14,856 nt of DNA from the IMG/VR virus record IMGVR_UViG_2778261223_000017; one strand, written 5' to 3'. Positions within the stretch are counted from its first letter, which is position 1, and the number at the start of each line of letters is the position of its first letter. Positions 1 to 14,523 of this stretch are shown here, one piece after another. The notes beneath the pieces were generated by a model, which searched no databases, was not told the origin of the DNA, and saw only the letters and a list, made by a program, of their open reading frames with translations. Source of the stretch: a virus (Duplodnaviria > Heunggongvirae > Uroviricota > Caudoviricetes). A program made the position numbers and the translations under genes.

Positions 1-77
1 ATGCTTCCATCGGAAACGATGATCTGGCAGCCTGAGTTCACAGATAAAACACTCTCCAGGAAACCCGGGGCGGTTCA
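1..77 (+). mobile_element. Partial IS3-family insertion sequence, right end (terminal inverted repeat about 41-77)
   Basis: Bases 41-77 (cagataaaacactctccaggaaacccggggcggttca) are an imperfect inverted copy of 14780-14816; the terminal 13 nt and a CTCCAGGA core match exactly. The TG...CA termini are typical of IS3-family elements. A frame-3 ORF fragment ends at 33-35, as expected for a transposase C-terminus just inside the repeat. The exact IS name was not determined. Confidence 0.6.
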
Positions 78-142
78 GGAACGTTACCTGAGCAAGCTGA
101 AAAAATGTTTATGGAGTATGTGAAGAAAGGTTCTTAATTTAC

Positions 143-168
143 AACAAAGGCGGTTATCCCGCCTTTTA
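143..168. terminator. Stem-loop (aaaggcgg / ccgccttt) with flanking T/A runs, likely terminator downstream of the 171-920 gene
   Basis: Perfect 8-bp inverted repeat with a 5-nt loop seen directly, located just past the stop of the minus-strand gene. Confidence 0.5.
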
Positions 169-170
169 TA

Positions 171-920
171 TTACTTGTCCTTTGATGTCGATTGAGACTC
201 ATATATTGTCTCTACGTCATCTATTAGTTTATTAATACCCCACAATCCAGTGTCTTTATAAAAATCACTTTCTTCAATTGCTTTTAATAAATCGGCAAAA
301 TCTTCTTGCGTGGAAATTCTTTTCTTTTTTGCTTTATATATATCGACAATTACTTTTATGCCGTGATACAGATTCACTCTGGCACTCTCAATCTCTCTCT
401 TCTTCTCTTCAATTGCAGACAATAATTTATATTGATCTTCTGTTTGCTTTTCTAGACTTAAAAGCTTGCTCTCTTTTTGCTTCAAGTTGATCTGCAAATC
501 TTTTATTCTTGCCCTCTCTTCTAAATCAAACTCATAGTCAATGTATCTAATTCTTGCATAGTTCCTGCCTGTTGCTTTTGATATACACATTGTTATATAA
601 GGCATTACCACTGACGCAGTGGTTCCATATATAAATGGCATAACAAAATGAGCCACAAACGGAGATACAATGATGGGGCCAACATAAGGAAAGTGATATT
701 TCTCACCAACCCATACTATAGACAATGTTGTATATATATCGTACTTTGATCTAAATAATATAATAATATCCTGCCAGTTAACGACAAAAAAAGAAACCAC
801 AACATATGCAAACAATTTATTAAATAACTTGTCTCTTATGGCTTCTTCGATTGTGTTCCTGACTGTGACATTTTCATCTTTATTTTCTAATGATGAATCT
901 TTGCTCATATAAAAATTCAA
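171..920 (-). CDS. Hypothetical membrane protein: hydrophobic N-terminal half (two to three predicted TM segments), charged coiled-coil-like C-terminal half
   Basis: Long ORF (249 aa) in a visibly AT-rich segment with Lys/Ile/Tyr-rich codon usage unlike its neighbours. Hydrophobic stretches LFAYVVVSFFVV and IIVSPFVAHFVMPFIYGTTASVVMPYI; C-terminal KE-rich heptad-like region. No recognisable catalytic motif. A weak AGAAGG sits upstream of the ATG at 920; an alternative start is at 908. Confidence 0.65.
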   Translation of the reverse strand: MNFYMSKDSSLENKDENVTVRNTIEEAIRDKLFNKLFAYVVVSFFVVNWQDIIILFRSKYDIYTTLSIVWVGEKYHFPYVGPIIVSPFVAHFVMPFIYGTTASVVMPYITMCISKATGRNYARIRYIDYEFDLEERARIKDLQINLKQKESKLLSLEKQTEDQYKLLSAIEEKKREIESARVNLYHGIKVIVDIYKAKKKRISTQEDFADLLKAIEESDFYKDTGLWGINKLIDDVETIYESQSTSKDK

Positions 921-945
921 ACCTTCTTATCTTTATTTTTGGTGA

Positions 946-964
946 AGGCGGTCTTCCAGACCGC
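946..964. other. Intercistronic perfect hairpin (ggcggtct-tcc-agaccgcc) between the HTH gene stop and the membrane-protein gene start
   Basis: 8-bp perfect inverted repeat with 3-nt loop seen directly. It is not followed by a U-run on either strand, so it is more likely an RNA processing or stability element than a terminator. Confidence 0.35.
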
Positions 965-969
965 CAAAC

Positions 970-1329
970 TCAAACACCAACCAGGCTTTCAAGAGGAATG
1001 CCAAACTGGGAATGTAAACGACGAATCATAGGTAACGTCAAATTTCGCGTGCCATTAAGCACTTCGTAAACACGGTTTGACTTACCAATCGCCGGTTCCA
1101 GATCCTTCACGGTCAGCCCTTGCTGTTCCATGCGGAACTTAATGGCCTCAATAGGTGATGGTGGTTGAATTGGGTAATGTTTCTTCTCGTACTCCTCAAT
1201 GAGAAGACTCATAACCTCAAAGAAATCAGCTTCCGGAGTATTCATTTCCGGTTCGTTATCGAACATCGGTTCGACCGCACGCAGTGCGGCCTCATAATCT
1301 TGTTCTGTACGGATAGGTTTAATGTTCAT
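970..1329 (-). CDS. HTH-XRE family protein resembling HigA-type antitoxins (C-terminal helix-turn-helix)
   Basis: 119-aa ORF. The C-terminal segment LTVKDLEPAIGKSNRVYEVLNGTRNLTLPMIRRLHSQFGIPLESL resembles the HTH region of E. coli HigA-family antitoxins as I recall them; the N-terminal IKPIRTEQDYEAAL is typical of that family. Not verified by search. Confidence 0.6.
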   Translation of the reverse strand: MNIKPIRTEQDYEAALRAVEPMFDNEPEMNTPEADFFEVMSLLIEEYEKKHYPIQPPSPIEAIKFRMEQQGLTVKDLEPAIGKSNRVYEVLNGTRNLTLPMIRRLHSQFGIPLESLVGV

Positions 1330-1341
1330 TAATTACAAAGG

Positions 1342-1370
1342 AAAGCCCACTTGCTAAGTGGGCTTTTTGT
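1342..1370. terminator. Hairpin aaagcccactt / aagtgggcttt followed by TTTTT; bidirectional-looking terminator between higA and the downstream HTH gene
   Basis: Inverted repeat and T-run seen directly. Confidence 0.5.
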
Positions 1371-1385
1371 ATGTGTTTTACTATA

Positions 1386-1724
1386 TCAGGCTGCTTTTTT
1401 ATTCAGGTTACGCTGAGAAATAAATTTTTCAGCAGTATTGATACGACTTAACTCTTCCTGAACGCGCATATCATTTTCGACTTCCCACAGATCTACTGCG
1501 GTCTGAAGATTAATCCAAAAATCTACAGAAGTATCGAATGCTTTTGCCAGGCGATATGCCATATCCATCGTTAGCTTACGATTATTATTAACAAGAGCAC
1601 TTACGGTGTTACGATGAACATGAAGTATTTCTGCTAACTCGTTGATCTTCAGCTCTAACGGCTCCAGGTATTCGTACAGCAGGATATCACCTACGGTCGT
1701 CGGTTTTCTGGTTGCCTGTTTCAT
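1386..1724 (-). CDS. higA: HigA antitoxin (HTH, VapI/COG3093-like)
   Basis: 112-aa ORF directly downstream of the higB-like gene on the same strand. The motif TVGDILLYEYLEPLELKINELAEILHVHRNTVSALVNNNRKLTMDMAYRLAKAFDTSVDFWINLQ matches the HigA/VapI antidote HTH family by recall. Confidence 0.8.
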   Translation of the reverse strand: MKQATRKPTTVGDILLYEYLEPLELKINELAEILHVHRNTVSALVNNNRKLTMDMAYRLAKAFDTSVDFWINLQTAVDLWEVENDMRVQEELSRINTAEKFISQRNLNKKAA

Positions 1725-1794: not shown

Positions 1795-2097
1795 TTAGTA
1801 TTTGTGAGGGTCGAGATACAAGTCCTCGGCCTTTCCGTTAACCCACTTAAAAATTAACCTATATTGCTTATTCACCCTTACTGATGAATAGCCATTTAGC
1901 TTCCCTGACAGTTCCTCATACCGATTACCTGGTGGTGATCTTAAATCCTTACAGGTAGTTGCGGCATTGATAATGTCCAACTTCCGTGACAATGTCATAT
2001 GAATATCAGGAGGTATCTTTCTATGTGGTGTTGAAAATTCAAAAAAATCATCAAGCCACGCATCCCTGAAATCCTTTATGTTAATTTTTTTGGTCAT
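1795..2097 (-). CDS. higB: HigB toxin (plasmid maintenance killer protein, RelE/ParE superfamily)
   Basis: 100-aa ORF. KDFRDAW...LRSPPGNRYEELSGKLNGYSSVRVNKQYRLIFKWVNGKAEDLYLDPHKY matches the HigB/killer-protein family pattern by recall. Toxin-first order with higA downstream. Confidence 0.8.
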   Translation of the reverse strand: MTKKINIKDFRDAWLDDFFEFSTPHRKIPPDIHMTLSRKLDIINAATTCKDLRSPPGNRYEELSGKLNGYSSVRVNKQYRLIFKWVNGKAEDLYLDPHKY

Positions 2098-2259: not shown

Positions 2260-3051
2260 ATGGGCCGTTTTGACGAATGGTTTGCTGACGATGCAAACCT
2301 GGCAAGTAAGGAGTCAGAACATGACAGCACGCAGAGAGAAACGCCAGCGCCGATTGAAGTGAATGCAGGAGGCGCGCCGGAACATGGCAATACCGGTTCG
2401 GATTCATTCAGCATTCTGGAAGAGCAACCCGCCGCCAAAGCTGATAGCCATGATAATTTTGCTGATAGCAACGGTGGCCTTACTCCGGATGCTGGCGAAT
2501 CAGATATAGCCATACTTCCACCTTCCCTGGCTGGCAGAGAATCAACTCCACAGCTAAAAGCACGCTATAACGGGCATAAAGCCTTTAACGACCAAATCCG
2601 CGCAGACTGGATGCTGATTATTGAATCCAGCCCAGACGCGTTTCAGGCTCTCTTATATCGACCAGATGTTGGCACATATGGGGTAGTCAGCGACGAAACA
2701 GGAGAAGAGTCATTCACTGAACTGGATAACAACCAACGCGAACTGACTTACCAGGAACCTGAAATCGTTTATGTGCTGGATAACCCTGACGGGCGTGACT
2801 CTTTCCATGCGATTGACGCAGACGGTGAGCAGGATGGCTTAACCGATGATGTTCTGATTCTGCGTATTGCAGCAAATAACGTCCCCGTCGGCTCAATTCT
2901 TGAATGGAATGAAGAGATGGTAAACGGCGTAGCGCGCCGCTGGTGGTACGTGCACCGTATTTTTAGCTACGGCACACAGCATGTTGGTTCGCTTTACTAC
3001 TGCATACCTGCCAGGAATTTTGATACGACTCAAAACGGAGTGATCGAATGA
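2260..3051 (+). CDS. Hypothetical protein, first gene of four-gene operon; acidic low-complexity N-terminal region and structured C-terminal domain
   Basis: ORF with GAGGA Shine-Dalgarno about 5 nt before the ATG at 2260 (the track's 2248 start is a TTG). N-terminal about 110 aa are D/E/S/G/P-rich; the C-terminus contains RRWWYVHRIFSYGTQHVGSLYYCIPARNFD. The stop overlaps the next start (ATGA at 3048-3051). No family recognised. Confidence 0.6.
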   Translation: MGRFDEWFADDANLASKESEHDSTQRETPAPIEVNAGGAPEHGNTGSDSFSILEEQPAAKADSHDNFADSNGGLTPDAGESDIAILPPSLAGRESTPQLKARYNGHKAFNDQIRADWMLIIESSPDAFQALLYRPDVGTYGVVSDETGEESFTELDNNQRELTYQEPEIVYVLDNPDGRDSFHAIDADGEQDGLTDDVLILRIAANNVPVGSILEWNEEMVNGVARRWWYVHRIFSYGTQHVGSLYYCIPARNFDTTQNGVIE

Positions 3052-3815
3052 CTTCAAATAAAACCCTCCTGGCGCGAACAGGTGAATGGCAAACCTCACG
3101 CACAGGAAAATTCCAGACCACGGGCTTTGAAAACGTGGATAACGCGTTTGCGACGCTAATCAGCAACATTTTTTCTGATATCTTACTGGTGGCCCCCGCG
3201 CCGGAAGAAAAACGCTTTGCGTCATTCCTGAATCGTCCACCAGCAGAGCGTGTTTATGTGGCCCGTTTCGACAATGCGATCGAGTTTCTTAAAGCAGTTC
3301 GTCGCGCAAATGCCGGGCAAGGGAGAAAACCTGAAAACCAGAACATTAACCGGGATGCTCTCCCCCTGGTCAATATCTCACGCACTATGGATATCAATTA
3401 TATCAACGATGATCAGCAGATTGACCGCAAAAAAGTAGCCAGTTTTTGCGAACCGGATACCGGAATGCCTTTAGCAGAACTGGAATACACCCAGGCTATT
3501 CTGACGTATGACGTTACGTTAATGGCAACTGATAAAGCGACCATGAGTCTGATGTGTAATTCGCTGGGCGCACGGCTTCGCCTGATGACAGGTACACAAT
3601 TTGAAGCAACCACTCACCTTGTTCGTGTCCCGGTCCCGCTGATTTGCTCGATACAGGATGCCAAAGAAGTCGGCTTTACGGATGTTTCAGCACCAATTGG
3701 AGAAGAGCGTATTTATGCCACACAAGCGCCGATAAGTGTGATTGCAGACGTGATCACAGCATGGGAGTTGGACGCAAAACGTATTATTACCGAAACCTCG
3801 ATATCTATGGGGTGA
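3048..3815 (+). CDS. Hypothetical protein, second gene of four-gene operon
   Basis: 255-aa ORF translationally coupled to the upstream gene (ATGA overlap). No family recognised. Confidence 0.6.
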   Translation: MTSNKTLLARTGEWQTSRTGKFQTTGFENVDNAFATLISNIFSDILLVAPAPEEKRFASFLNRPPAERVYVARFDNAIEFLKAVRRANAGQGRKPENQNINRDALPLVNISRTMDINYINDDQQIDRKKVASFCEPDTGMPLAELEYTQAILTYDVTLMATDKATMSLMCNSLGARLRLMTGTQFEATTHLVRVPVPLICSIQDAKEVGFTDVSAPIGEERIYATQAPISVIADVITAWELDAKRIITETSISMG

Positions 3816-3818
3816 TAA

Positions 3819-4799
3819 GTGGCCCAGGAGTTACAACAATATTTTCTACAGTCAGTGCTCATTAACGATAACAAAGTGCCACGAGACTGGATTTTTACCG
3901 CAGTATATGTAGAAAAAACCAGCCTCAAAGCCCCTTTGCTAAAACTGGAAATTCATGACGCTACCGGCACCGTAATTGATGACTGGAAAGCCAAATACGG
4001 TGCATCGCTGGTGGCTGAAATGGGCGATCCAAACGGTAATGCAGGCACTTTTAAAACAGATTTCTTTGTTACGTCTGCAATGCTGGCTGGTGATGTTGTT
4101 ACCGTTATTGCTGTCAGTGAAGACGTGCGCAGGTTTAAGATCCCCTCCCCGCGCACAAATTTACATACCAACAAAACACCAGACGCTATATTCAAGGCAT
4201 ATTCCGGCAAGCTTAAAATTACCAGCAGCGTGCTAAAACGCGCAGTTACATATCATCTGAATGCCGGTGACAAACCGTCAAAAATGCTTTCGGAGATAGC
4301 GCGAGACAAAGGTGCATTATGTTGGGTATGCCGGGGGGAATTTAACTTTTACACCCTGGCTGATCTGATGAAGCAAACGCCATCATTTACCTACGAGGGG
4401 AATAACCCTAAAGCAGAATACACTTTGTCCAAAATGCGCCTACTCCAACAGGAACATGCGACAACAGCAAAGAATCAATATCGTTTTGTTGGGTATTCCA
4501 TGACCGATGGCTACGTCGAATATGGCGATAGCTCACTCCCAGTGCGTTATATATCCGACTCTGATATGGAAACTCTTCGCAATATGCAGCTGTCTCTCGT
4601 CCCCAAAATGGATATAGAAGTCGCAGGCAATCCTGATATAAAACCGGGGATGGTGATAGAGATTATCGTATACCGCTATGACCAGGAAAACCGCATTGAT
4701 GAATCAATGCCCCGTAAGCTGATAGTAAAAAATGTTGCGCACTTTGAAGACCGCGTAGGCTACACAACACGAATGATATTGGGAGTGCCGAACAAATGA
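3819..4799 (+). CDS. Putative phage baseplate hub protein (late control gene D / gp27-like)
   Basis: 326-aa ORF with a GTG start 4 nt after the previous stop. Segments KMLSEIARDKGALCWVCRGEFNF and GNPDIKPGMVIEIIVYRYDQENRIDESMPRKLIVKNVAHFEDRVGYTTRMIL resemble conserved regions of P2 gpD-family hub proteins by recall. Immediately followed by, and coupled to, a spike-like gene. Confidence 0.5.
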   Translation: MAQELQQYFLQSVLINDNKVPRDWIFTAVYVEKTSLKAPLLKLEIHDATGTVIDDWKAKYGASLVAEMGDPNGNAGTFKTDFFVTSAMLAGDVVTVIAVSEDVRRFKIPSPRTNLHTNKTPDAIFKAYSGKLKITSSVLKRAVTYHLNAGDKPSKMLSEIARDKGALCWVCRGEFNFYTLADLMKQTPSFTYEGNNPKAEYTLSKMRLLQQEHATTAKNQYRFVGYSMTDGYVEYGDSSLPVRYISDSDMETLRNMQLSLVPKMDIEVAGNPDIKPGMVIEIIVYRYDQENRIDESMPRKLIVKNVAHFEDRVGYTTRMILGVPNK

Positions 4800-5508: not shown

Positions 5509-6414
5509 ATGAGATCAGTCGCTTTCAAAAATATCTTCATCTATCGTCTTTCACGCGAAGTTAGCTGGGATACTGCAGAAGTAAATGCAGCCCTTAGCAA
5601 GTTTGTGTTTACCCCATGCGGTTCTCAGGATATGGCTAAAGCTGGTTGGACCTCCGTTCTTGGTGACAACCTCACCCATGAATACCAGGGTTTTCTTCTG
5701 ATACAGCATAAACGAGAGGAAAAAATCCTACCTTCTCAAGTGCTCAAAGAAGAGTTACAGAAAAAAATCCTGACACTTGAAGAAGAGCAAGACAGAAAGC
5801 TGAAGAAGACCGAAAAAGATTCGCTGAAGGATGAAGTGCTTCACTCTCTTCTTCCTCGTGCTTTCACGAGAAAATCACTCGCCAAAATCCTGATCGACCG
5901 CAGAAACCATCTGGTATTCGTTGAGGCAAGCAGCGCCAAAAAGGCAGAGGACCAGCTGGCTTTATTGCGAAAATCGCTCGGCAGCCTGCCTGTCATTCCA
6001 TTCACACCACGCGAACCGCTGGAAATTACAATGACCGAGTGGTTTAAAAACGGCTTCCCTGCCGGATTTACAGCAGGTGAAGACGCCAAATTAAAGGGTC
6101 TGCTCGATAATGGTGGTGCCGTTCGCTGCAACAAAGTTGATCTACAGTCCGACGAGATTATGTCTCACATTGAGGCGGGGAAAGTAGCTACGACCGTTGC
6201 AATTAACTGGATGGACCGCGCGTCGTTCAGAGTCAACGATGATATGAGTATCAAAGCCCTGACATTCTGTGATGATCTCTATGACCAGAACGACGATATC
6301 GACCGGGAGGATGTAGCACAACGATTTGATGCTGATTTCGTGCTCTTTACGGGCGAATTATCTGCACTGTTTAACGCGCTGGTGGAGGCCATTGGCGGTG
6401 AAGCAGAACGATAA
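5509..6414 (+). CDS. rdgC: RdgC-like recombination-associated DNA-binding protein (divergent homolog)
   Basis: 301-aa ORF. N-terminus [10 protein letters not shown]...[14 protein letters not shown] and central [23 protein letters not shown]...[26 protein letters not shown] closely parallel E. coli RdgC (about 303 aa) as I recall it, though clearly diverged elsewhere. Confidence 0.8.
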
Positions 6415-6430
6415 TAACCGACCGCTTGTT

Positions 6431-7078
6431 GTGAGTCTTTGTGATTTTACGGGGGCAATGGTTGCCCCCTGGCTGGAATACGGTGTCGATGCCGCTATCG
6501 TCGATCCACAGCACTTATCGACCAGTGACGAGCGGATGCAATCAGGTGCCGTTCTGACGCGTATTAGTGCGATCATCGATAGCGATGAAGTATACGCTTT
6601 TCTCCGTAAGAATTTGCAGCGCATCGTGTTTCTGGCCGGGTTCCCACCGTGTACTGACCTGGCTGTTTCCGGCGCGCGCTGGTTTTCGGACAAGGCTAAT
6701 AAAGATCCGGTTTTCCAGTTCAAAGCAATGCAGGTTGTCTGGCAGTGTTATGACATTGCAAAGATGATCGGTTGTCCGTACATGATTGAAAATCCGGTCA
6801 GCAAAATATCGACATTCTGGCGTAAGCCAGATCACATCTTTCACCCTTACTTCTTCACTGCATATTGTCAGGAAGATAACTACACCAAAAAAACATGCCT
6901 CTGGAGCGGCCAGGGCTTTGTCATGCCTGATGCCCTAATGGACGAATCATTAGGCAAGCCAGATAACAGAATCCATGCCGCGCCACCAGGGCCTGACAGG
7001 GCTAATTTTCGAAGTGCTACTCCACATGGATTCGCAAAGGCAGTTTTCGAAGCGAATAAGGGGGTGCTCTATGAGTAA
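6431..7078 (+). CDS. Putative short DNA (cytosine-5) methyltransferase-like protein
   Basis: Contains a motif-I-like LCDFTG, a motif-IV-like GFPPCTDLAVSG (Pro-Cys) and a motif-VI-like IENP. The start is uncertain: the ORF is open back to 6326 and overlaps the rdgC-like gene; GTG 6431 was chosen because it lies just after the rdgC stop and precedes motif I. About 215 aa is short for a C5-methyltransferase, so the call is tentative. Confidence 0.45.
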   Translation: MSLCDFTGAMVAPWLEYGVDAAIVDPQHLSTSDERMQSGAVLTRISAIIDSDEVYAFLRKNLQRIVFLAGFPPCTDLAVSGARWFSDKANKDPVFQFKAMQVVWQCYDIAKMIGCPYMIENPVSKISTFWRKPDHIFHPYFFTAYCQEDNYTKKTCLWSGQGFVMPDALMDESLGKPDNRIHAAPPGPDRANFRSATPHGFAKAVFEANKGVLYE

Positions 7079-7976
7079 ATCTATAGCAAGCATAGCCATA
7101 GAAAAACAGGATACGATGGCTGAAATTAGCTATATGCGCACCATTCGGACTCCGGATGAATATGAGCGTCCGATATTCAAATGGGTAGGTGGTAAATTCT
7201 CAGAATTGCCTACAGTGCTTGAGCATCTACCACACGGTAAGCGGTTAATAGAACCATTCGTTGGTGGCGGTTCCGTATTTACGAATGCAGGATTTCGCCA
7301 CAACCTGCTTAATGATATTAACGGTGACCTGATTAACTTCTATCAGACATTGCAGCGAGAAGGACATTCGCTCGTCACGCTGTCATATAGTTTTTTCCAA
7401 AATTACAACAACGCTGACGCTTACCTCGAAGTGCGTGAGGCATTTAACAGAGGAAAGTATGACCAGCTACATCATGCTGCCGCCTTTTTGTACCTTAATC
7501 GGCACTGTTTTAATGGCGTAACGCGGTACAACCAAAATGGCGAGTTCAACGTGGGGTATGGCAAATACAAAGCACCCTACTTCCCACACGCAGAGATGGA
7601 GGCATTTTTGGCTGATGACGTACTCAAAAACACGTCCTTTGTATCAGGTGACTTTGCTGGCGTCATCGAGGCGGCTGGTGAAGGCGATGTGATTTTTTGC
7701 GATCCGCCGTATGAACCGCTGCCGGATACAGAAGGGTTTACCAGTTATTCAGGAAATAGCTTCCGTTTCGACGAACAGAAACGGCTGGTATCTCTATTGG
7801 TGGAAGCCCACCAGCGCGGCGCTAAGGTAGTGATAACAAATAGTGGTGCGCCAAACATCCGTGAACTATATGAAGGAAACGGGTTTAAAGTACATCATAT
7901 GGCAGCCAGACGGTCGGTGTCCTGCAAGGCGTCAACACGTGTAGTTGCTAACGATATAATTGCAATAATGAAGTAA
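7071..7976 (+). CDS. dam: Dam-like DNA adenine (N6) methyltransferase
   Basis: FKWVGGK, EPFVGGGSVF, LYLNRHCFNGVTRYNQNGEFNVGYGKYKAPYFP and the catalytic DPPY motif parallel E. coli Dam. AAGGGGG Shine-Dalgarno before the ATG at 7071; the start overlaps the preceding gene's stop by 8 nt. Confidence 0.85.
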   Translation: MSKSIASIAIEKQDTMAEISYMRTIRTPDEYERPIFKWVGGKFSELPTVLEHLPHGKRLIEPFVGGGSVFTNAGFRHNLLNDINGDLINFYQTLQREGHSLVTLSYSFFQNYNNADAYLEVREAFNRGKYDQLHHAAAFLYLNRHCFNGVTRYNQNGEFNVGYGKYKAPYFPHAEMEAFLADDVLKNTSFVSGDFAGVIEAAGEGDVIFCDPPYEPLPDTEGFTSYSGNSFRFDEQKRLVSLLVEAHQRGAKVVITNSGAPNIRELYEGNGFKVHHMAARRSVSCKASTRVVANDIIAIMK

Positions 7977-8024: not shown

Positions 8025-9686
8025 TTAACCTAACTTCGCCCAGGTATCACGCAGCCCAACGGTGCGGTTAAATACCGGTTTTTCCGCCGTAGAATGGCGG
8101 CTGTCGAGGCAGAAATAACCTTCACGCTCAAACTGGAATGCTTTACCCGCTACCGCGTCTTTCAGAGACGGTTCAGCAAAGCCCTGTTTGATCACCAGCG
8201 ATTCCGGGTTAATCACCGACAGGAAATCATCCGCAGCACCTGGGTTCGGCACGCTGAACAGACGGTCATACAAACGGATTTCAACCGGCAGCGCATGTGC
8301 CGCGCTCACCCAGTGAATAACACCTTTGACTTTACGACCATCTGCCGGATCTTTGCTTAAGGTATCGGCGTCATAAGTACAGAAGATGGTGGTGATATTA
8401 CCTTCGGCATCTTTCTCGACGCGTTCTGCCTTAATCACATAAGCATTACGCAGACGCACTTCTTTACCCAGCACCAGACGTTTGTACTGCTTGTTAGCTT
8501 CTTCGCGGAAATCGGCGCGATCAATCCAAATCTCACCGCTAAACGGCACCTGACGGCTCCCCATTTCCGGTTTGTTCGGATGGTTCGGCATGGTGACCAT
8601 TTCGCCTTCGCCCTGATAGTTTTCGATAACCAGTTTCACCGGATCGATAACCGCCATTGCGCGCGGCGCATTTTCGTTGAGATCTTCACGGATGCAGGAT
8701 TCCAGCGACGCCATCTCAATGGTGTTGTCCTGCTTGGTCACGCCGATGCGTTTGCAGAACTCACGAATAGAAGCAGCAGTGTAACCACGACGACGCAGAC
8801 CGGAAATGGTCGGCATACGCGGGTCATCCCAGCCTTCAACGTGCTTGTCGGTCACCAGCAGGTTCAGCTTACGCTTGGACATCACAGTGTATTCCAGATT
8901 CAGGCGCGAGAATTCGTACTGGCGCGGGTGAACAGGAATGGTGATGTTGTCCAGTACCCAGTCATACAGACGACGGTTGTCCTGGAACTCAAGCGTACAC
9001 AGAGAGTGCGTAATACCTTCCAGCGCATCGCTGATGCAGTGGGTGAAGTCGTACATCGGGTAGATGCACCACTTGTTGCCAGTCTGGTGGTGTTCAGCAA
9101 ACTTAATGCGGTACAGCACCGGGTCGCGCATCACGATAAACGGCGAAGCCATATCGATTTTCGCACGCAGGCAGGCTTTACCTTCTTCAAAACCACCGGC
9201 ACGCATTTTTTCGAACAGCGCCAGGTTCTCTTCAACGCTGCGATCGCGGTACGGGCTATTTTTACCCGGCTGCGTCAGGGTGCCGCGGTATTCGCGGATC
9301 TGTTCCGGCGTCAGTTCGTCAACATACGCCAGGCCTTTGTTGATCAGTTCAACAGCATAGGCATGGAGTTTGTCAAAATAATCGGAGGAGTAACGGATGT
9401 TGCCAGACCAGTGAAAACCTAACCATTCAACGTCGTTTTTAATCGACTCGACGTACTCGATATCTTCTTTTACCGGGTTAGTGTCGTCGAAACGCAGGTT
9501 GCACTGGCCTTTATAGTCCTGGGCGATCCCGAAGTTCAGGCAGATAGATTTCGCATGGCCAATATGCAGATAGCCATTCGGCTCCGGCGGGAAACGGGTG
9601 TGTACTGTGGTGTGCTTACCACTGGCCAGATCTTCATCGATGATCTGACGAATAAAGTTAGTCGGGCGGGCTTCTGCCTCACTCAT
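8025..9686 (-). CDS. glnS: Glutaminyl-tRNA synthetase
   Basis: 553-aa ORF. N-terminus [47 protein letters not shown] (class I HIGH motif) and a VMSKR-type KMSKS motif; near-identical to E. coli GlnS as recalled. Confidence 0.97.
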
Positions 9687-9954: not shown

Positions 9955-10242
9955 TTATTTTGCTTCCTCAGACTCCGCTAACATGAGGATAGCATGGCGG
10001 ATCATATTCAATTTGCTGCGATTATGCTTTTTACTTAACGCATCAAGTACTTGGTACTCGTATTCATTGAAACCAACACGAATAGATTTAAAATCACGTG
10101 GAGCGTCCTTATCGAGCACTTTGTTGTCTTCTGGTTGCTCACCCGGCACCAAATCAGCCTTACTGGCAAAATCCTCAATTCGGCGTTCAAGATCAGGGTC
10201 TTTTACTTCGGGGGCTTTTACCGATTTACGAGGCTTAATCAC
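9955..10242 (-). CDS. Small partition-operon DNA-binding protein (ParG/ParB-like, probable ribbon-helix-helix)
   Basis: 95-aa basic ORF directly downstream of and overlapping (8 nt) the ParA-like gene. Disordered N-terminus, then C-terminal KSIRVGFNEYEYQVLDALSKKHNRSKLNMIRHAILMLAE consistent with a beta-strand plus helices RHH fold. Confidence 0.55.
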   Translation of the reverse strand: MIKPRKSVKAPEVKDPDLERRIEDFASKADLVPGEQPEDNKVLDKDAPRDFKSIRVGFNEYEYQVLDALSKKHNRSKLNMIRHAILMLAESEEAK

Positions 10243-10876
10243 TTAATAACTCCTTAACCAACATCTGGATTTCACCTTTAGCTTTCCCGTTGTCCATCTC
10301 AACAACGCCCTTCCCTTCAGCCATGCAATCGCGGTAAACCTTACGATCACGAATGATGGTTTTCAGCAACTTCAGTTGCGGATATTCAGCCAGGTACTCT
10401 TTGGCCTCATTGGTTTCATTCACAACCGGATTGGATGGGGCCATTGTTAAGACTGCGAACGCCTTGATGCTAGGATTAGGCATCAGGTCCAAAGCCTCTT
10501 CAAACACTTCAACAAAGTGTGCCAGCGTGTCTAAATCTGGTTGAGATGGTCTGAATGGGACCAACACAATATCTGCAGCGGTTATGCCTGTACGCATCTC
10601 TTTGCTATCGCGCCCGGCTGTATCAACAACTACAAATTCATAACGCTTATCCAGATCGAGAAGTGTTTCTCGAATATTACCAAACTTCTGGACACAATGA
10701 ATTACAGGAGAAACCTCTGCCGTGTTACGGTCAGCTGCCCAGCGGGCAGCTGTTCCTTGCTTGTCTGCATCTAGTAACACTACATCCTTATTTTCGCGGG
10801 CAAGCTCCGCACAGATGTTTACGCTTGTGGTTGATTTTCCACAGCCACCTTTTTGGCTGACTACCAATATAATCAT
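10235..10876 (-). CDS. parA: ParA/ParF-type partition ATPase (deviant Walker A)
   Basis: VVSQKGGCGKSTTSVNICAEL Walker A box and VVVDTAGRD Walker B-like motif. Start chosen at ATG 10876 (GAGGA Shine-Dalgarno 5 nt upstream) rather than the track's TTG at 10906. Confidence 0.85.
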   Translation of the reverse strand: MIILVVSQKGGCGKSTTSVNICAELARENKDVVLLDADKQGTAARWAADRNTAEVSPVIHCVQKFGNIRETLLDLDKRYEFVVVDTAGRDSKEMRTGITAADIVLVPFRPSQPDLDTLAHFVEVFEEALDLMPNPSIKAFAVLTMAPSNPVVNETNEAKEYLAEYPQLKLLKTIIRDRKVYRDCMAEGKGVVEMDNGKAKGEIQMLVKELLSD

Positions 10877-11114
10877 ATCCGTTCCTCGGTGTGATTTTGG
10901 TATCAAAACGGTTCCAGATAAGAGCCTTTTTGATGCGGGACAGGCTCTATAATGGAGTCATGAATGTTTGGCAAAGTATAACATCAATCAGACCAAATAC
11001 ACCTTATATTGCATCCTATTTAACACGAAAGCAGCCCCAAATTGGAACCAGATACAAAATTGCACCATAACAGCACCTAACTGGTGCCAGATTAACACTA
11101 ATTAGACACCATTA

Positions 11115-11514: not shown

Positions 11515-12471
11515 TTAACCGATTGCTTTCAGGCCATGAACAAGAGCAAGTTGCGGGTCATCCGCCACGAAGAAACGGTCATCACGAATATTAACTTGCT
11601 CGCGAATTGCATCTGCCACCAGCGGTGCGCCACCACCGATCACCATGACATGCGTATATCCTTTAAAGTCGCCAATCACATCAAGAACGCGGGTACGCAG
11701 ACGGTCAATGCTTGCGGCAATGGCCTTTTTCACATCACCAATCGCTAATGGGTCATTGATATTGTCGTTCAGATAATCTTCATCGTGGCGGTTAATAATG
11801 AGCTGATCAACATTGTAATTTGACGTTTCGGTATTGGCCCTTGCAAGTGCTTGCCTTACTTCCCTGGTGACCAGTGATACACCAAGATTCGAATCGCCAA
11901 AAACACGGGAAACTGCCGTCATTTGTCCAGCGACCATTGAAACATCAAGGGTAGTTCCACCCAAATCGACGATAAGAACAGAGTGGGCAGGGTTCAGATT
12001 GTCGCACAGGCTAATTCCCGCCGGGATAGACTCCGGGCGTACCGTAACTTTCTTAATAGTGAATACATTGCCTTTATTCAGCGTGACGGGGCGCATAAGA
12101 CTGGCTTTCTTGCGCTCGATGTTATCGAGATTGTATTGCGCGTCGTCGTCGTAAAACTCTGCCAGAGGCAGCGTGACCACAATTTCTACTTCCTGCGGCT
12201 CAATACCGCTTGTCAGCAGGGCATGGTGAACAGCCAGGACGTTAAGCGGGCTGTATTGCCATTCCACATTATTCGTCGGCAGAACATCTGGCGATATCAA
12301 GTCGTATGAATACTTTTCGTCGTCAATGACATAGTTAAACGGCTTGCCCGCACCAAATGTTGCTGACCATCCGCGCTTAAAGCTGTTAGGGCTGATGTGA
12401 GTGCGAGTTTCCCCGTCGTGCTCCCACAGCATTTTGATATTGGTTGAACCATCATCGATAAAAATGCGCAT
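11515..12471 (-). CDS. parM: ParM/StbA actin-like partition ATPase
   Basis: MRIFIDDGSTNIKM..., HISPNSFKRGW, AVHHALLTSG, NIERKKA, ESIPAG, LIVDLGGTTLD, GDSNLGVSLVT and GYTHVMVIGGGA parallel R1 ParM motif by motif. Start at ATG 12471 (GGAG upstream); the track start 12495 is 8 codons longer. Confidence 0.9.
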   Translation of the reverse strand: MRIFIDDGSTNIKMLWEHDGETRTHISPNSFKRGWSATFGAGKPFNYVIDDEKYSYDLISPDVLPTNNVEWQYSPLNVLAVHHALLTSGIEPQEVEIVVTLPLAEFYDDDAQYNLDNIERKKASLMRPVTLNKGNVFTIKKVTVRPESIPAGISLCDNLNPAHSVLIVDLGGTTLDVSMVAGQMTAVSRVFGDSNLGVSLVTREVRQALARANTETSNYNVDQLIINRHDEDYLNDNINDPLAIGDVKKAIAASIDRLRTRVLDVIGDFKGYTHVMVIGGGAPLVADAIREQVNIRDDRFFVADDPQLALVHGLKAIG

Positions 12472-12495
12472 CTTCTTGCTCCACTTCTGAGACAC

Positions 12496-12737: not shown

Positions 12738-13022
12738 ATGAGCGCAATAGCCACCAGCGACACCCTTTGTTCTGGTCACGGAGGATTTCCGCCGCGACTG
12801 GTAGCTGAAACCGTTCCCTGGTTCACCGTTAACGGTAAGCCAGTTGTTGTAGATGGTGCCATGTTTCCCAGTCACACTGACGGTAACAGTGCACATCCAG
12901 GGGCAGCTGTATCGACGCGAGCATGGTTTTCGATAGGTGGAAAGGGAGTTGTCTGTGTAGGCGATCTGCTTTCTTGTGGTTCTGTTATCGCCAACGGCGA
13001 GGATATTTTTCAGGTTGCATAA
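12738..13022 (+). CDS. PAAR-like domain protein (spike-tip protein)
   Basis: 94-aa ORF with strong AGGAGGTG Shine-Dalgarno. Repeated motif pattern FTVNGKPVVVDGAMF and SIGGKGVVCVGDLLSCGSVIANG with conserved Cys/His/Gly positions typical of PAAR proteins. Confidence 0.7.
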   Translation: MSAIATSDTLCSGHGGFPPRLVAETVPWFTVNGKPVVVDGAMFPSHTDGNSAHPGAAVSTRAWFSIGGKGVVCVGDLLSCGSVIANGEDIFQVA

Positions 13023-13883: not shown

Positions 13884-14357
13884 ATGAACCTGAAGAGGAT
13901 GGTTTTGAAAAAGATAATTTTGATTGTAATTGCGCTTTTAGCCATTTCTGGAATTTACCGAACAACGACGGCAGTTATCGAACACATCAGGTATGTCCGA
14001 TCGCTTGAAGACTCAAAATCACAACTGGAAAGCACGAACAACACGCTTTCTACCGCATTACAGTTAAGTGAGAACGCTCGCTCAGCCATGCTGACCGAAA
14101 ACGAAAGAATTAAAGCACTGGAAAAGGAGTACCAGCGCAAAACAGCAGAACTGAATGCCAACCTAATCAAACAACGAGAGGAAAGCCAGAATGAAATCAC
14201 TCGCCTTGAAAATGCGTTACGCCGTGCTGGGATTAACGATGTGCGTGTGCCTGATGACGTTATCAGGATGCAGCGGGAACGGGCAAAAGCCATCAACCAG
14301 CGTGCCAGTGAAAATTACCGTAGAAGCCACCAGCAAGCCGCAGGCAAATCTGATTGA
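13884..14357 (+). CDS. Rz-like inner-membrane spanin (i-spanin): N-terminal TM anchor plus periplasmic coiled coil
   Basis: N-terminal hydrophobic segment KKIILIVIALLAISGIY followed by a charged heptad-rich region. NALRRAGINDVRV resembles the Rz C-terminal region of lambda by recall. An overlapping +1-frame lipoprotein gene is embedded at its 3' end. Confidence 0.6.
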   Translation: MNLKRMVLKKIILIVIALLAISGIYRTTTAVIEHIRYVRSLEDSKSQLESTNNTLSTALQLSENARSAMLTENERIKALEKEYQRKTAELNANLIKQREESQNEITRLENALRRAGINDVRVPDDVIRMQRERAKAINQRASENYRRSHQQAAGKSD

Positions 14358-14523
14358 TTACTCCCCTTGTTTAGTGCCAGAAGACACGCCAGTGCTGTTA
14401 AACAAGTATCCGACATACGCTGAACAGTTATTCAGCACGATCGACGAATGCAACCAACGAAACGCACTGAATAACCAAAGAAACAGGGAGATTTGGGAAG
14501 GGAAGGGGGATCAAGGCTCCTGA
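14191..14523 (+). CDS. Rz1-like outer-membrane lipoprotein spanin (o-spanin), overlapping the i-spanin gene in another frame
   Basis: GAGGAAAG Shine-Dalgarno before the ATG at 14191. Signal peptide with lipobox LSGC (MKSLALKMRYAVLGLTMCVCLMTLSGC), Pro-containing mature region, and two further Cys residues. The gene begins inside the Rz-like gene and extends past it, the overlapped spanin architecture. Confidence 0.55.
   Translation: MKSLALKMRYAVLGLTMCVCLMTLSGCSGNGQKPSTSVPVKITVEATSKPQANLIDYSPCLVPEDTPVLLNKYPTYAEQLFSTIDECNQRNALNNQRNREIWEGKGDQGS

Follow-up and report, generated by a model that had tools for sequence, protein, structure and literature searches.

Near one end of a virus record from IMG/VR (IMGVR_UViG_2778261223_000017; Caudoviricetes), an AT-rich gene encoding a membrane-anchored coiled-coil protein lies downstream of a gene encoding a helix-turn-helix (HTH) protein, and the question raised by this locus is whether the two genes constitute a regulator-effector pair, as a preliminary description of the sequence had proposed, or whether they are independent neighbors. 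The whole stretch of DNA that was analyzed (14,856 nt) is hereafter referred to as the window, and X is our label for both the membrane/coiled-coil protein and its gene (171..908, minus strand). Comparison of related loci shows that X is not dependent on the HTH gene, and that the two are neighbors and not a toxin-antitoxin (TA) pair. We interpret the region as a hotspot with three separate parts, in which X would be an autonomous membrane factor that excludes or aborts competing phages; we place the probability of this interpretation at roughly 0.45. The features of the region, in window coordinates, are:

1..80: end of IS629, an IS3-family insertion sequence (IS); 98-100% identical to IS629 ends in many Stx phages
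76..137, plus strand: last 62 nt of a P1 gene-25-like tail gene, with the stop codon at 135-137; equivalent to L001 4001-4062, within the coding sequence 2866..4062
146..166: GC-rich hairpin followed by a T-run, a terminator common to X and gene 25 (terminator scan; -15.4 kcal/mol)
171..908, minus strand: X, a 245-aa inner-membrane protein of family phrog_8191 (homolog starts, hydropathy, AlphaFold2, HMM match)
909..969, minus strand: spacer from HigA to X, with the stem-loop GGCGGTC-TGGAA-GACCGCC (947-965) and a Shine-Dalgarno-like motif, AAGAAGG
970..1329, minus strand: orphan E. coli-type HigA (the HTH gene), 119 aa, toxin-binding region N-terminal and HTH C-terminal (HTH_3, PDB, and PD-Lambda-2_B matches)
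1330..1341: recombination junction (~1336/1337), where similarity to plasmids with PF09907 higB stops
1342..1366: bidirectional terminator-like hairpin (perfect 11-bp arms) that closes the RelE-type higBA cassette (terminator scan, fold)
1386..1724, minus strand: HigA (TIGR02607, HTH_3), antitoxin of a complete pair (antidote_HigA, 8e-30)
1795..2097, minus strand: HigB-like toxin (PF05015, RelE/ParE superfamily; HigB-like_toxin, E=4e-35)
2260..3051, plus strand: P1 gene-7-like tail gene that borders the hotspot on its other side (comparison with P1/D6-type records)

The first 2.3 kb of the window are 96-100% identical to ~90-kb plasmids of Salmonella and E. coli (e.g., pYU39_89), with similarity to D6-like plasmids beginning at position 76, and phage D6 matches positions 736-2300 at ~95%. 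In those plasmid and D6 records, the region sits between homologs of P1 tail gene 25 (D6 orf74 is annotated as 'similar to P1 gene 25') and P1 gene 7, on the opposite strand. Based on these matches and borders, we assign the window to a D6-like phage-plasmid of the P1 family. The locus is placed between gp7 and gp25 in all 22 related IMG/VR contigs, and is a variable cargo hotspot between tail genes 25 and 7 that is transcribed opposite to the tail genes. Its contents are best explained as three separate things: a complete RelE-family higBA, an orphan HigA, and the X cassette.

X and the HTH gene as separate neighbors

The proposal that the HTH gene and X form a regulator- or antitoxin-effector pair is supported neither by the distribution of the two genes, which occur separately, nor by the partner of the HTH protein in sibling elements, which is a PF09907 HigB. 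Across the 22 IMG/VR loci, X lies behind a PF09907 higB and higA in six, behind a RelE-type higBA and an intact orphan HigA (as in the window) in six, and behind a RelE-type higBA and a truncated HigA in ten, with X intact in these ten; one X allele class occurs behind either TA type. Distant X relatives occupy the orf30 site of P2-like prophages (between genes S and V) on their own; this variable site is known to gather horizontally acquired genes (PMC3091744). Solitary X relatives also occur in an Enterobacter chromosome and a genomic island. Another relative lies behind a TacA/GNAT-toxin pair (TacAT) and a 68-aa open reading frame (ORF) in the P1-like hotspot that extends from the tail tube gene to PmgC (L049-L051, 2281-4214), and in L022 the same hotspot holds higB-higA-X. 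Because X occurs with a truncated HTH gene or alone, and the HTH gene occurs without X (L005), the pairing is not obligate. In the P2-like prophages L015-L018 (4001-5576), the X relative at orf30 is convergent with a second AT-rich (35% GC) ORF of 247 aa that matches phrog_10503, a family of uncharacterized function.

X is a discrete, self-contained cassette, with the stem-loop at 947-965 as its upstream boundary and the hairpin at 146-166 as its downstream boundary. This follows from an 'empty site' in L005 (NZ_OY757108.1, 3530-3625), in which HigA is kept, X is exactly missing between two similar hairpins, and the upstream stem-loop is fused to sequence beyond the downstream hairpin at a shared ACCGCCTT.

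The HTH protein itself had been described as HigA-type and as having no cognate toxin in the window, and both statements hold. In a phmmer search against the PDB, residues 6-112 of the 119-aa protein aligned with residues 21-129 of HigA (5YCL_A, 5IFG_B; E=3e-8), an alignment that is near end to end; HTH_3 was matched at residues 63-115, and the HigA-like N-terminal part of the PD-Lambda-2_B profile at 3e-43. The upstream neighbor in the window is the TIGR02607 HigA of a separate complete pair. In sibling D6-like elements, a 100-aa PF09907 HigB is encoded 3 nt upstream of a HigA that is 97-100% identical to the copy in the window; this HigB, which resembles that of E. coli, lies directly upstream in L003, L012, L027-L029, L031, and L032. 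The window HigA is likewise 96-100% identical to copies in plasmids carrying the cognate HigB. Two palindromes, TCCCA-N3-4-TGGGA in form (TCCCAGCATGGGA and GTCCCATATTGGGAC), lie on either side of the sibling higB promoter (-35/-10), and no operator motif of the form TCCCA-N2-5-TGGGA occurs anywhere in the window. This arrangement in the siblings, together with the near full-length HigA alignment, recalls E. coli K-12 HigB-HigA (YgjN-YgjM; PF09907 plus a COG5499-type protein; 5IFG, 5YCL, 6JQ4), from which the window differs in having no toxin gene, promoter, or operators and a non-homologous PF05015 higBA instead.

The boundary between these two states lies at ~1336, 7 nt before the HigA start codon: match H20 spans window positions 76-1336 only, and sliding identity to L003 and L012 collapses beyond ~1344. 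Because similarity stops at this point, the operators are gone, and a complete PF05015 higBA with its hairpin lies upstream, a RelE-type higBA cassette has replaced the higB, promoter, and operators of a second higBA, leaving an orphan antitoxin. The incoming pair (1386-2097), in which toxin and antitoxin domains are adjacent with the toxin first, is best explained as an addiction module of the RelE family, a higBA that is complete and ends in a terminator of its own. The orphan HigA looks to be still constrained, as its codon differences from the L003 sibling copy are mostly synonymous (14 synonymous, 3 non-synonymous). It is also dispensable, since HigA is cut to ~58-65 residues in the commonest plasmid type, and L035 has a nonsense codon in the HTH gene beside a full-length X.

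Structure, family and alleles of X

X was initially delineated as a 249-aa ORF, which is present at 171..920 (minus strand); the true start, however, is almost certainly the ATG at 908, giving 245 aa, because every homolog begins at the equivalent Met (MS.D/E...) and the RefSeq annotation is of 245 aa. The TTG at 920 is only 1 nt away from the purine-rich AAGAAGG. The 49-bp gap to the HTH gene given previously holds for the TTG start; with the ATG at 908 as the start, the spacer up to the stop codon of the HTH gene (970) measures 61 nt. The strong AT-richness reported for the gene is borne out: X has a GC content of 32.7% (31.3% at third codon positions), whereas the window as a whole has 46.4% and the tail genes on either side have 45-50%; X is the lowest-GC stretch in the window. 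Low GC is family-wide in every host examined, however, with X relatives at 35-44% versus 50-62% for neighboring genes. Thus, the suggestion of horizontal acquisition stands in that X is a compositionally distinct and horizontally exchanged cassette, although its low GC, as a trait of the whole family, is not in itself evidence of a recent separate acquisition here.

A membrane anchor and a long coiled coil had been proposed for X, and are confirmed by hydropathy and AlphaFold2. Hydropathy shows two hydrophobic segments, the first transmembrane helix (TM1) at residues ~32-52 and another at 75-110. In the AlphaFold2 model, for which 59 family members were used (mean predicted local distance difference test score [pLDDT] 83.8; an earlier run with 12 homologs gave 64.6), a helix at 31-53 is followed by a short loop with a beta-hairpin, an unbroken helix at 83-193 (pLDDT >90 over residues 100-180), and, at 201-242, a small C-terminal domain that is also helical. 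The layout predicted from this model is an N-terminal tail, TM1 (~31-53), and a second transmembrane helix (TM2, ~83-110) that runs into a coiled coil to ~193. Because a basic cluster (KATGRNYARIR) directly follows TM2, the C-terminal two-thirds of X would be cytoplasmic according to the positive-inside rule. The topology that best explains these data is a cytoplasmic N-terminus, two TM helices, and a cytoplasmic coiled coil of ~85 residues.

X matches phrog_8191 (function uncharacterized) over its full length (E=4e-116; X residues 1-245 against positions 1-241 of the 242-position profile), and its distant relatives also match phrog_4780 and phrog_13369. A profile search of 1.84 billion representative proteins returned only 63 X relatives at E<=1e-3, and a profile search of genome contigs with a narrower alignment returned one locus. 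The X family is small and is carried by temperate phages and plasmids. The relatives share one architecture, with invariant Asn44 in TM1 and invariant Pro91 and Pro103 in TM2. The searches tied X to no protein of known function. In a scan against PADLOC-DB v2, X from the window gave 0 matches, and the 59 family members gave, among the families listed, only coiled-coil-type matches, the top ones being to generic SMC-like models. Two candidate assignments were dismissed: a Pfam match of X to DUF6947 that was below the cut-off (E=0.004) and that other members do not show, and a match of one X homolog to the PADLOC '2TM effector' model (E=4e-4), which is isolated and absent among the families listed for the 59-member scan.

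X proteins from plasmids with HigA 96-100% identical are only 33-45% identical to each other, and the divergent block between these plasmids is confined to window positions ~100-990. X alleles are most alike in the membrane domain, where their mean identity is 57%, compared to 34% for the C-terminal domain and 24% for the coiled coil; some of them are mosaics of domains. The dN/dS ratio among members of an allele class is 0.2-0.4, from which we conclude that X is a real, functional gene under purifying selection; together with the conservation of the family, this rules out that X is not a real gene.

Three lineages that carry higB-higA-X, with X proteins ~25-43% identical, were found: the D6 lineage, a Klebsiella lineage, and L022. 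A stem-loop occurs at the equivalent position, just after the HigA stop codon, in all three. The Klebsiella lineage is represented both in a P1-like element and, between IS elements, on IncFIB/HI1B plasmids, in which truncation of X is frequent; for most of the listed Klebsiella records, the X match covers only ~139 residues, split into two places. In L007 and L009 (Klebsiella IncFIB/IncHI1B plasmids), the higB-higA-X triplet adjoins IS66 and IS5 elements.

Candidate role of X

We propose that X would act alone as a membrane factor, excluding competing phages or aborting their infection. The membrane-acting part would be the conserved TM hairpin with invariant Asn44, Pro91, and Pro103, and specificity would be set by the hypervariable cytoplasmic coiled-coil and C-terminal domains. 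In the lysogen, X may be expressed at a low level via read-through past the stem-loop that follows the TA operon upstream of it. The orphan HigA would be no regulator of X, and its likeliest remaining role, if any, would be to neutralize HigB from related incoming plasmids. Exclusion or abortive infection is suggested by the combination of a conserved membrane part, interchangeable cytoplasmic parts, residence in a hotspot, orientation opposite to the late genes, and TA neighbors. The preliminary description, which had likened the layout to antitoxin-controlled defense or exclusion genes, is supported as to the setting: a variable hotspot of a temperate phage-plasmid, with TA neighbors and extreme allelic diversity, is typical for such cargo, and by association a defense role for X is plausible.

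Membrane exclusion and abortive-infection proteins of the prophage type include T4 Imm, P22 SieA, lambda RexB, and the CBASS 2TM/SLATT effectors. X resembles these in being a small inner-membrane protein of a temperate element, AT-rich and highly polymorphic, encoded at a moron or variable site opposite to the late genes; it differs in that no sequence or fold similarity to them was detected, and no partner cyclase or sensor is present. A broader proposal, possible although tentative, is that phrog_8191/4780 would be a class of single-gene membrane-anchored anti-phage proteins of P1- and P2-like hotspots, each with a two-TM hairpin effector and a swappable specificity module; in P1-like elements, such a protein would be wired to a TA operon, such that loss of the labile antitoxin-repressor upon infection would increase X expression as well.

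Several observations weigh against X as an autonomous exclusion factor. X had no match above threshold in Pfam, NCBIfam, PADLOC, or the PDB and none among annotated PHROGs, and a PDB profile search and fold searches of the PDB and BFVD returned only generic coiled coils and long helices. No promoter for X was identified, with 7 promoter-like sites compared to 6.5 expected in shuffled sequence. X is dispensable, since many Klebsiella plasmids and some D6-like contigs carry it in truncated form. Guilt by association and allelic diversity also fit other kinds of accessory gene. Finally, the order higB(PF09907)-higA-stem-loop-X is found in three HigBA lineages whose HigB and HigA are 22-54% identical, and in L022 the Shine-Dalgarno motif of X begins only ~8 nt after the stem-loop. 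This spacing leaves no room for a separate X promoter, and together with the recurrent order it could reflect functional coupling to the TA module; given the spacing, X and the TA operon were probably co-transcribed in the ancestral arrangement.

This recurrent gene order across divergent lineages, the co-transcription implied by the L022 spacing, and the precedent for three-gene defense based on HigBA (PMC9519451; HigBAC) would all be accommodated if HigB(PF09907), HigA, and X were one unit, with X as an accessory or sensor of a TA-based defense and the window as a degenerate copy that has lost higB. We consider such a tripartite system unlikely, given that the same X alleles lie behind an unrelated RelE-type higBA with a truncated HigA, that X relatives lie behind TacAT or alone, and that L005 keeps HigA without X; in addition, the HigA aligns end to end with E. 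coli HigA and has no C-terminal extension for a chaperone-like partner. The two-gene version, in which the HTH protein would serve as antitoxin to a toxic membrane protein, or as its dedicated repressor, within an abortive-infection or TA module, is highly improbable. The two genes do lie next to each other on one strand, separated by 61 nt that include a palindromic stem-loop, and the HTH ORF is intact, its differences from L003 being mainly synonymous as given above; however, the HTH protein is a full-length HigA homolog with its own HigB in siblings, X is intact where the HTH domain has been deleted (10/22 loci, a common plasmid type) or interrupted by a nonsense codon (L035), the operator motif of the lineage is absent from the window, and X is found without any HTH neighbor.

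It is doubtful, but less so, that X is non-defense accessory cargo, such as a membrane scaffold, a lysis-timing factor, an envelope factor of lysogenic conversion, or a tolerated hitch-hiker. Purifying selection within X alleles argues against this, as does the orientation of X opposite to the late genes at both the D6 and P2 sites, and a conserved membrane domain joined to hypervariable cytoplasmic domains would be unexpected for a structural or housekeeping phage function. X also has no spanin or holin PHROG match, whereas the Rz-like spanin of the window does. In favor of non-defense cargo are the lack of any functional annotation for the family anywhere in our searches, the truncation or deletion of X in a fraction of elements, and the many functions of coiled-coil membrane proteins; hotspot residence alone proves no defense. 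The reading of X as an autonomous membrane factor against competing phages is the one that we retain.

Literature searches returned no description of the X family or of an operon of HigB, HigA, and a membrane protein. Among described three-gene systems, PD-lambda-2 consists of a HigB-like protein, a HigA-peptidase fusion, and a third gene needed for defense (Vassallo et al., 2022; PMC9519451). The 119-aa protein fits the N-terminal HigA-like 119 positions of PD-Lambda-2_B, and relatives of the locus have the order HigB, HigA, third gene; the differences are that the 119-aa HigA has no peptidase domain (the profile has 402 positions), and that X is a two-TM coiled-coil protein, is no relative of the P4 antitoxin, and has no PADLOC match. 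With the toxin-antitoxin-chaperone defense systems HigBAC and CmdTAC, the locus has a concept in common, namely a third gene behind a HigBA-type TA within variable regions of temperate phages, but X is not SecB-like (no Pfam match), the HigA is without a chaperone-addiction (ChAD) tail, and X occurs without a TA. Rz-like i-spanins share with X an N-terminal membrane anchor followed by a coiled coil; X differs in having two TM helices, a coiled coil that is cytoplasmic by charge, no lysis neighbors, and no spanin PHROG match. X as a spanin or holin was rejected, since no lysis PHROG was matched while the spanin at 13884-14357, serving as a control, was recognized.

The HigA and higBA parts of the locus are of already known kinds, and X is an uncharacterized family in a familiar setting. 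If X excludes phages or aborts their infection, it would add a defense family that is missed by catalogs: neither PADLOC nor Pfam nor the annotated PHROGs gave a match. The phage-plasmids carrying it are common in E. coli, Salmonella, and Klebsiella from clinical and food-chain sources. The natural series of X alleles in otherwise isogenic plasmids means that specificity would be mappable by allele swaps. If X has no phenotype, the locus would be an ordinary one, with two TA remnants and a moron of unassigned function. The locus also illustrates, in a clean form, how cassettes turn over in a hotspot: the toxin half of one higBA type was replaced by another type, an antitoxin was orphaned, and cargo was exchanged or deleted at hairpins.

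Other features of the window

At the border of the hotspot, the P1 gene-25-like tail gene is cut by the IS629 end 62 nt ahead of its stop codon, and this copy of the phage-plasmid may be defective as a phage. A second protein with a TM helix and a coiled coil is encoded at the other end of the window, overlapped by a further ORF:

13884-14357, plus strand: Rz-like i-spanin (phrog_214, phrog_89)
14191-14523, plus strand: ORF with a lipobox-like LSGC motif, overlapping the i-spanin; probably the o-spanin

A PAAR-motif protein (12738-13022, plus strand; phrog_281, E=2e-28) adjoins a 301-aa protein (phrog_1559) of unassigned function. A ParA-like ATPase and a ParM/StbA-like partition protein are encoded at 10235-10906 and 11515-12495, respectively (both minus strand), at most 1.3 kb apart; the window thus holds two different partition-type systems side by side. 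Two overlapping ORFs (6326-7078 and 6975-7976, plus strand) both match DNA methyltransferase PHROGs, and their counterpart in P1, dmt, is a single fusion gene. A full-length glutaminyl-tRNA synthetase gene, glnS (8025-9686, minus strand), lies between these methyltransferase genes and the partition region. No tRNA genes were found in the window, and the glnS stretch is present at >=95% identity in at least 98 D6-like plasmids.

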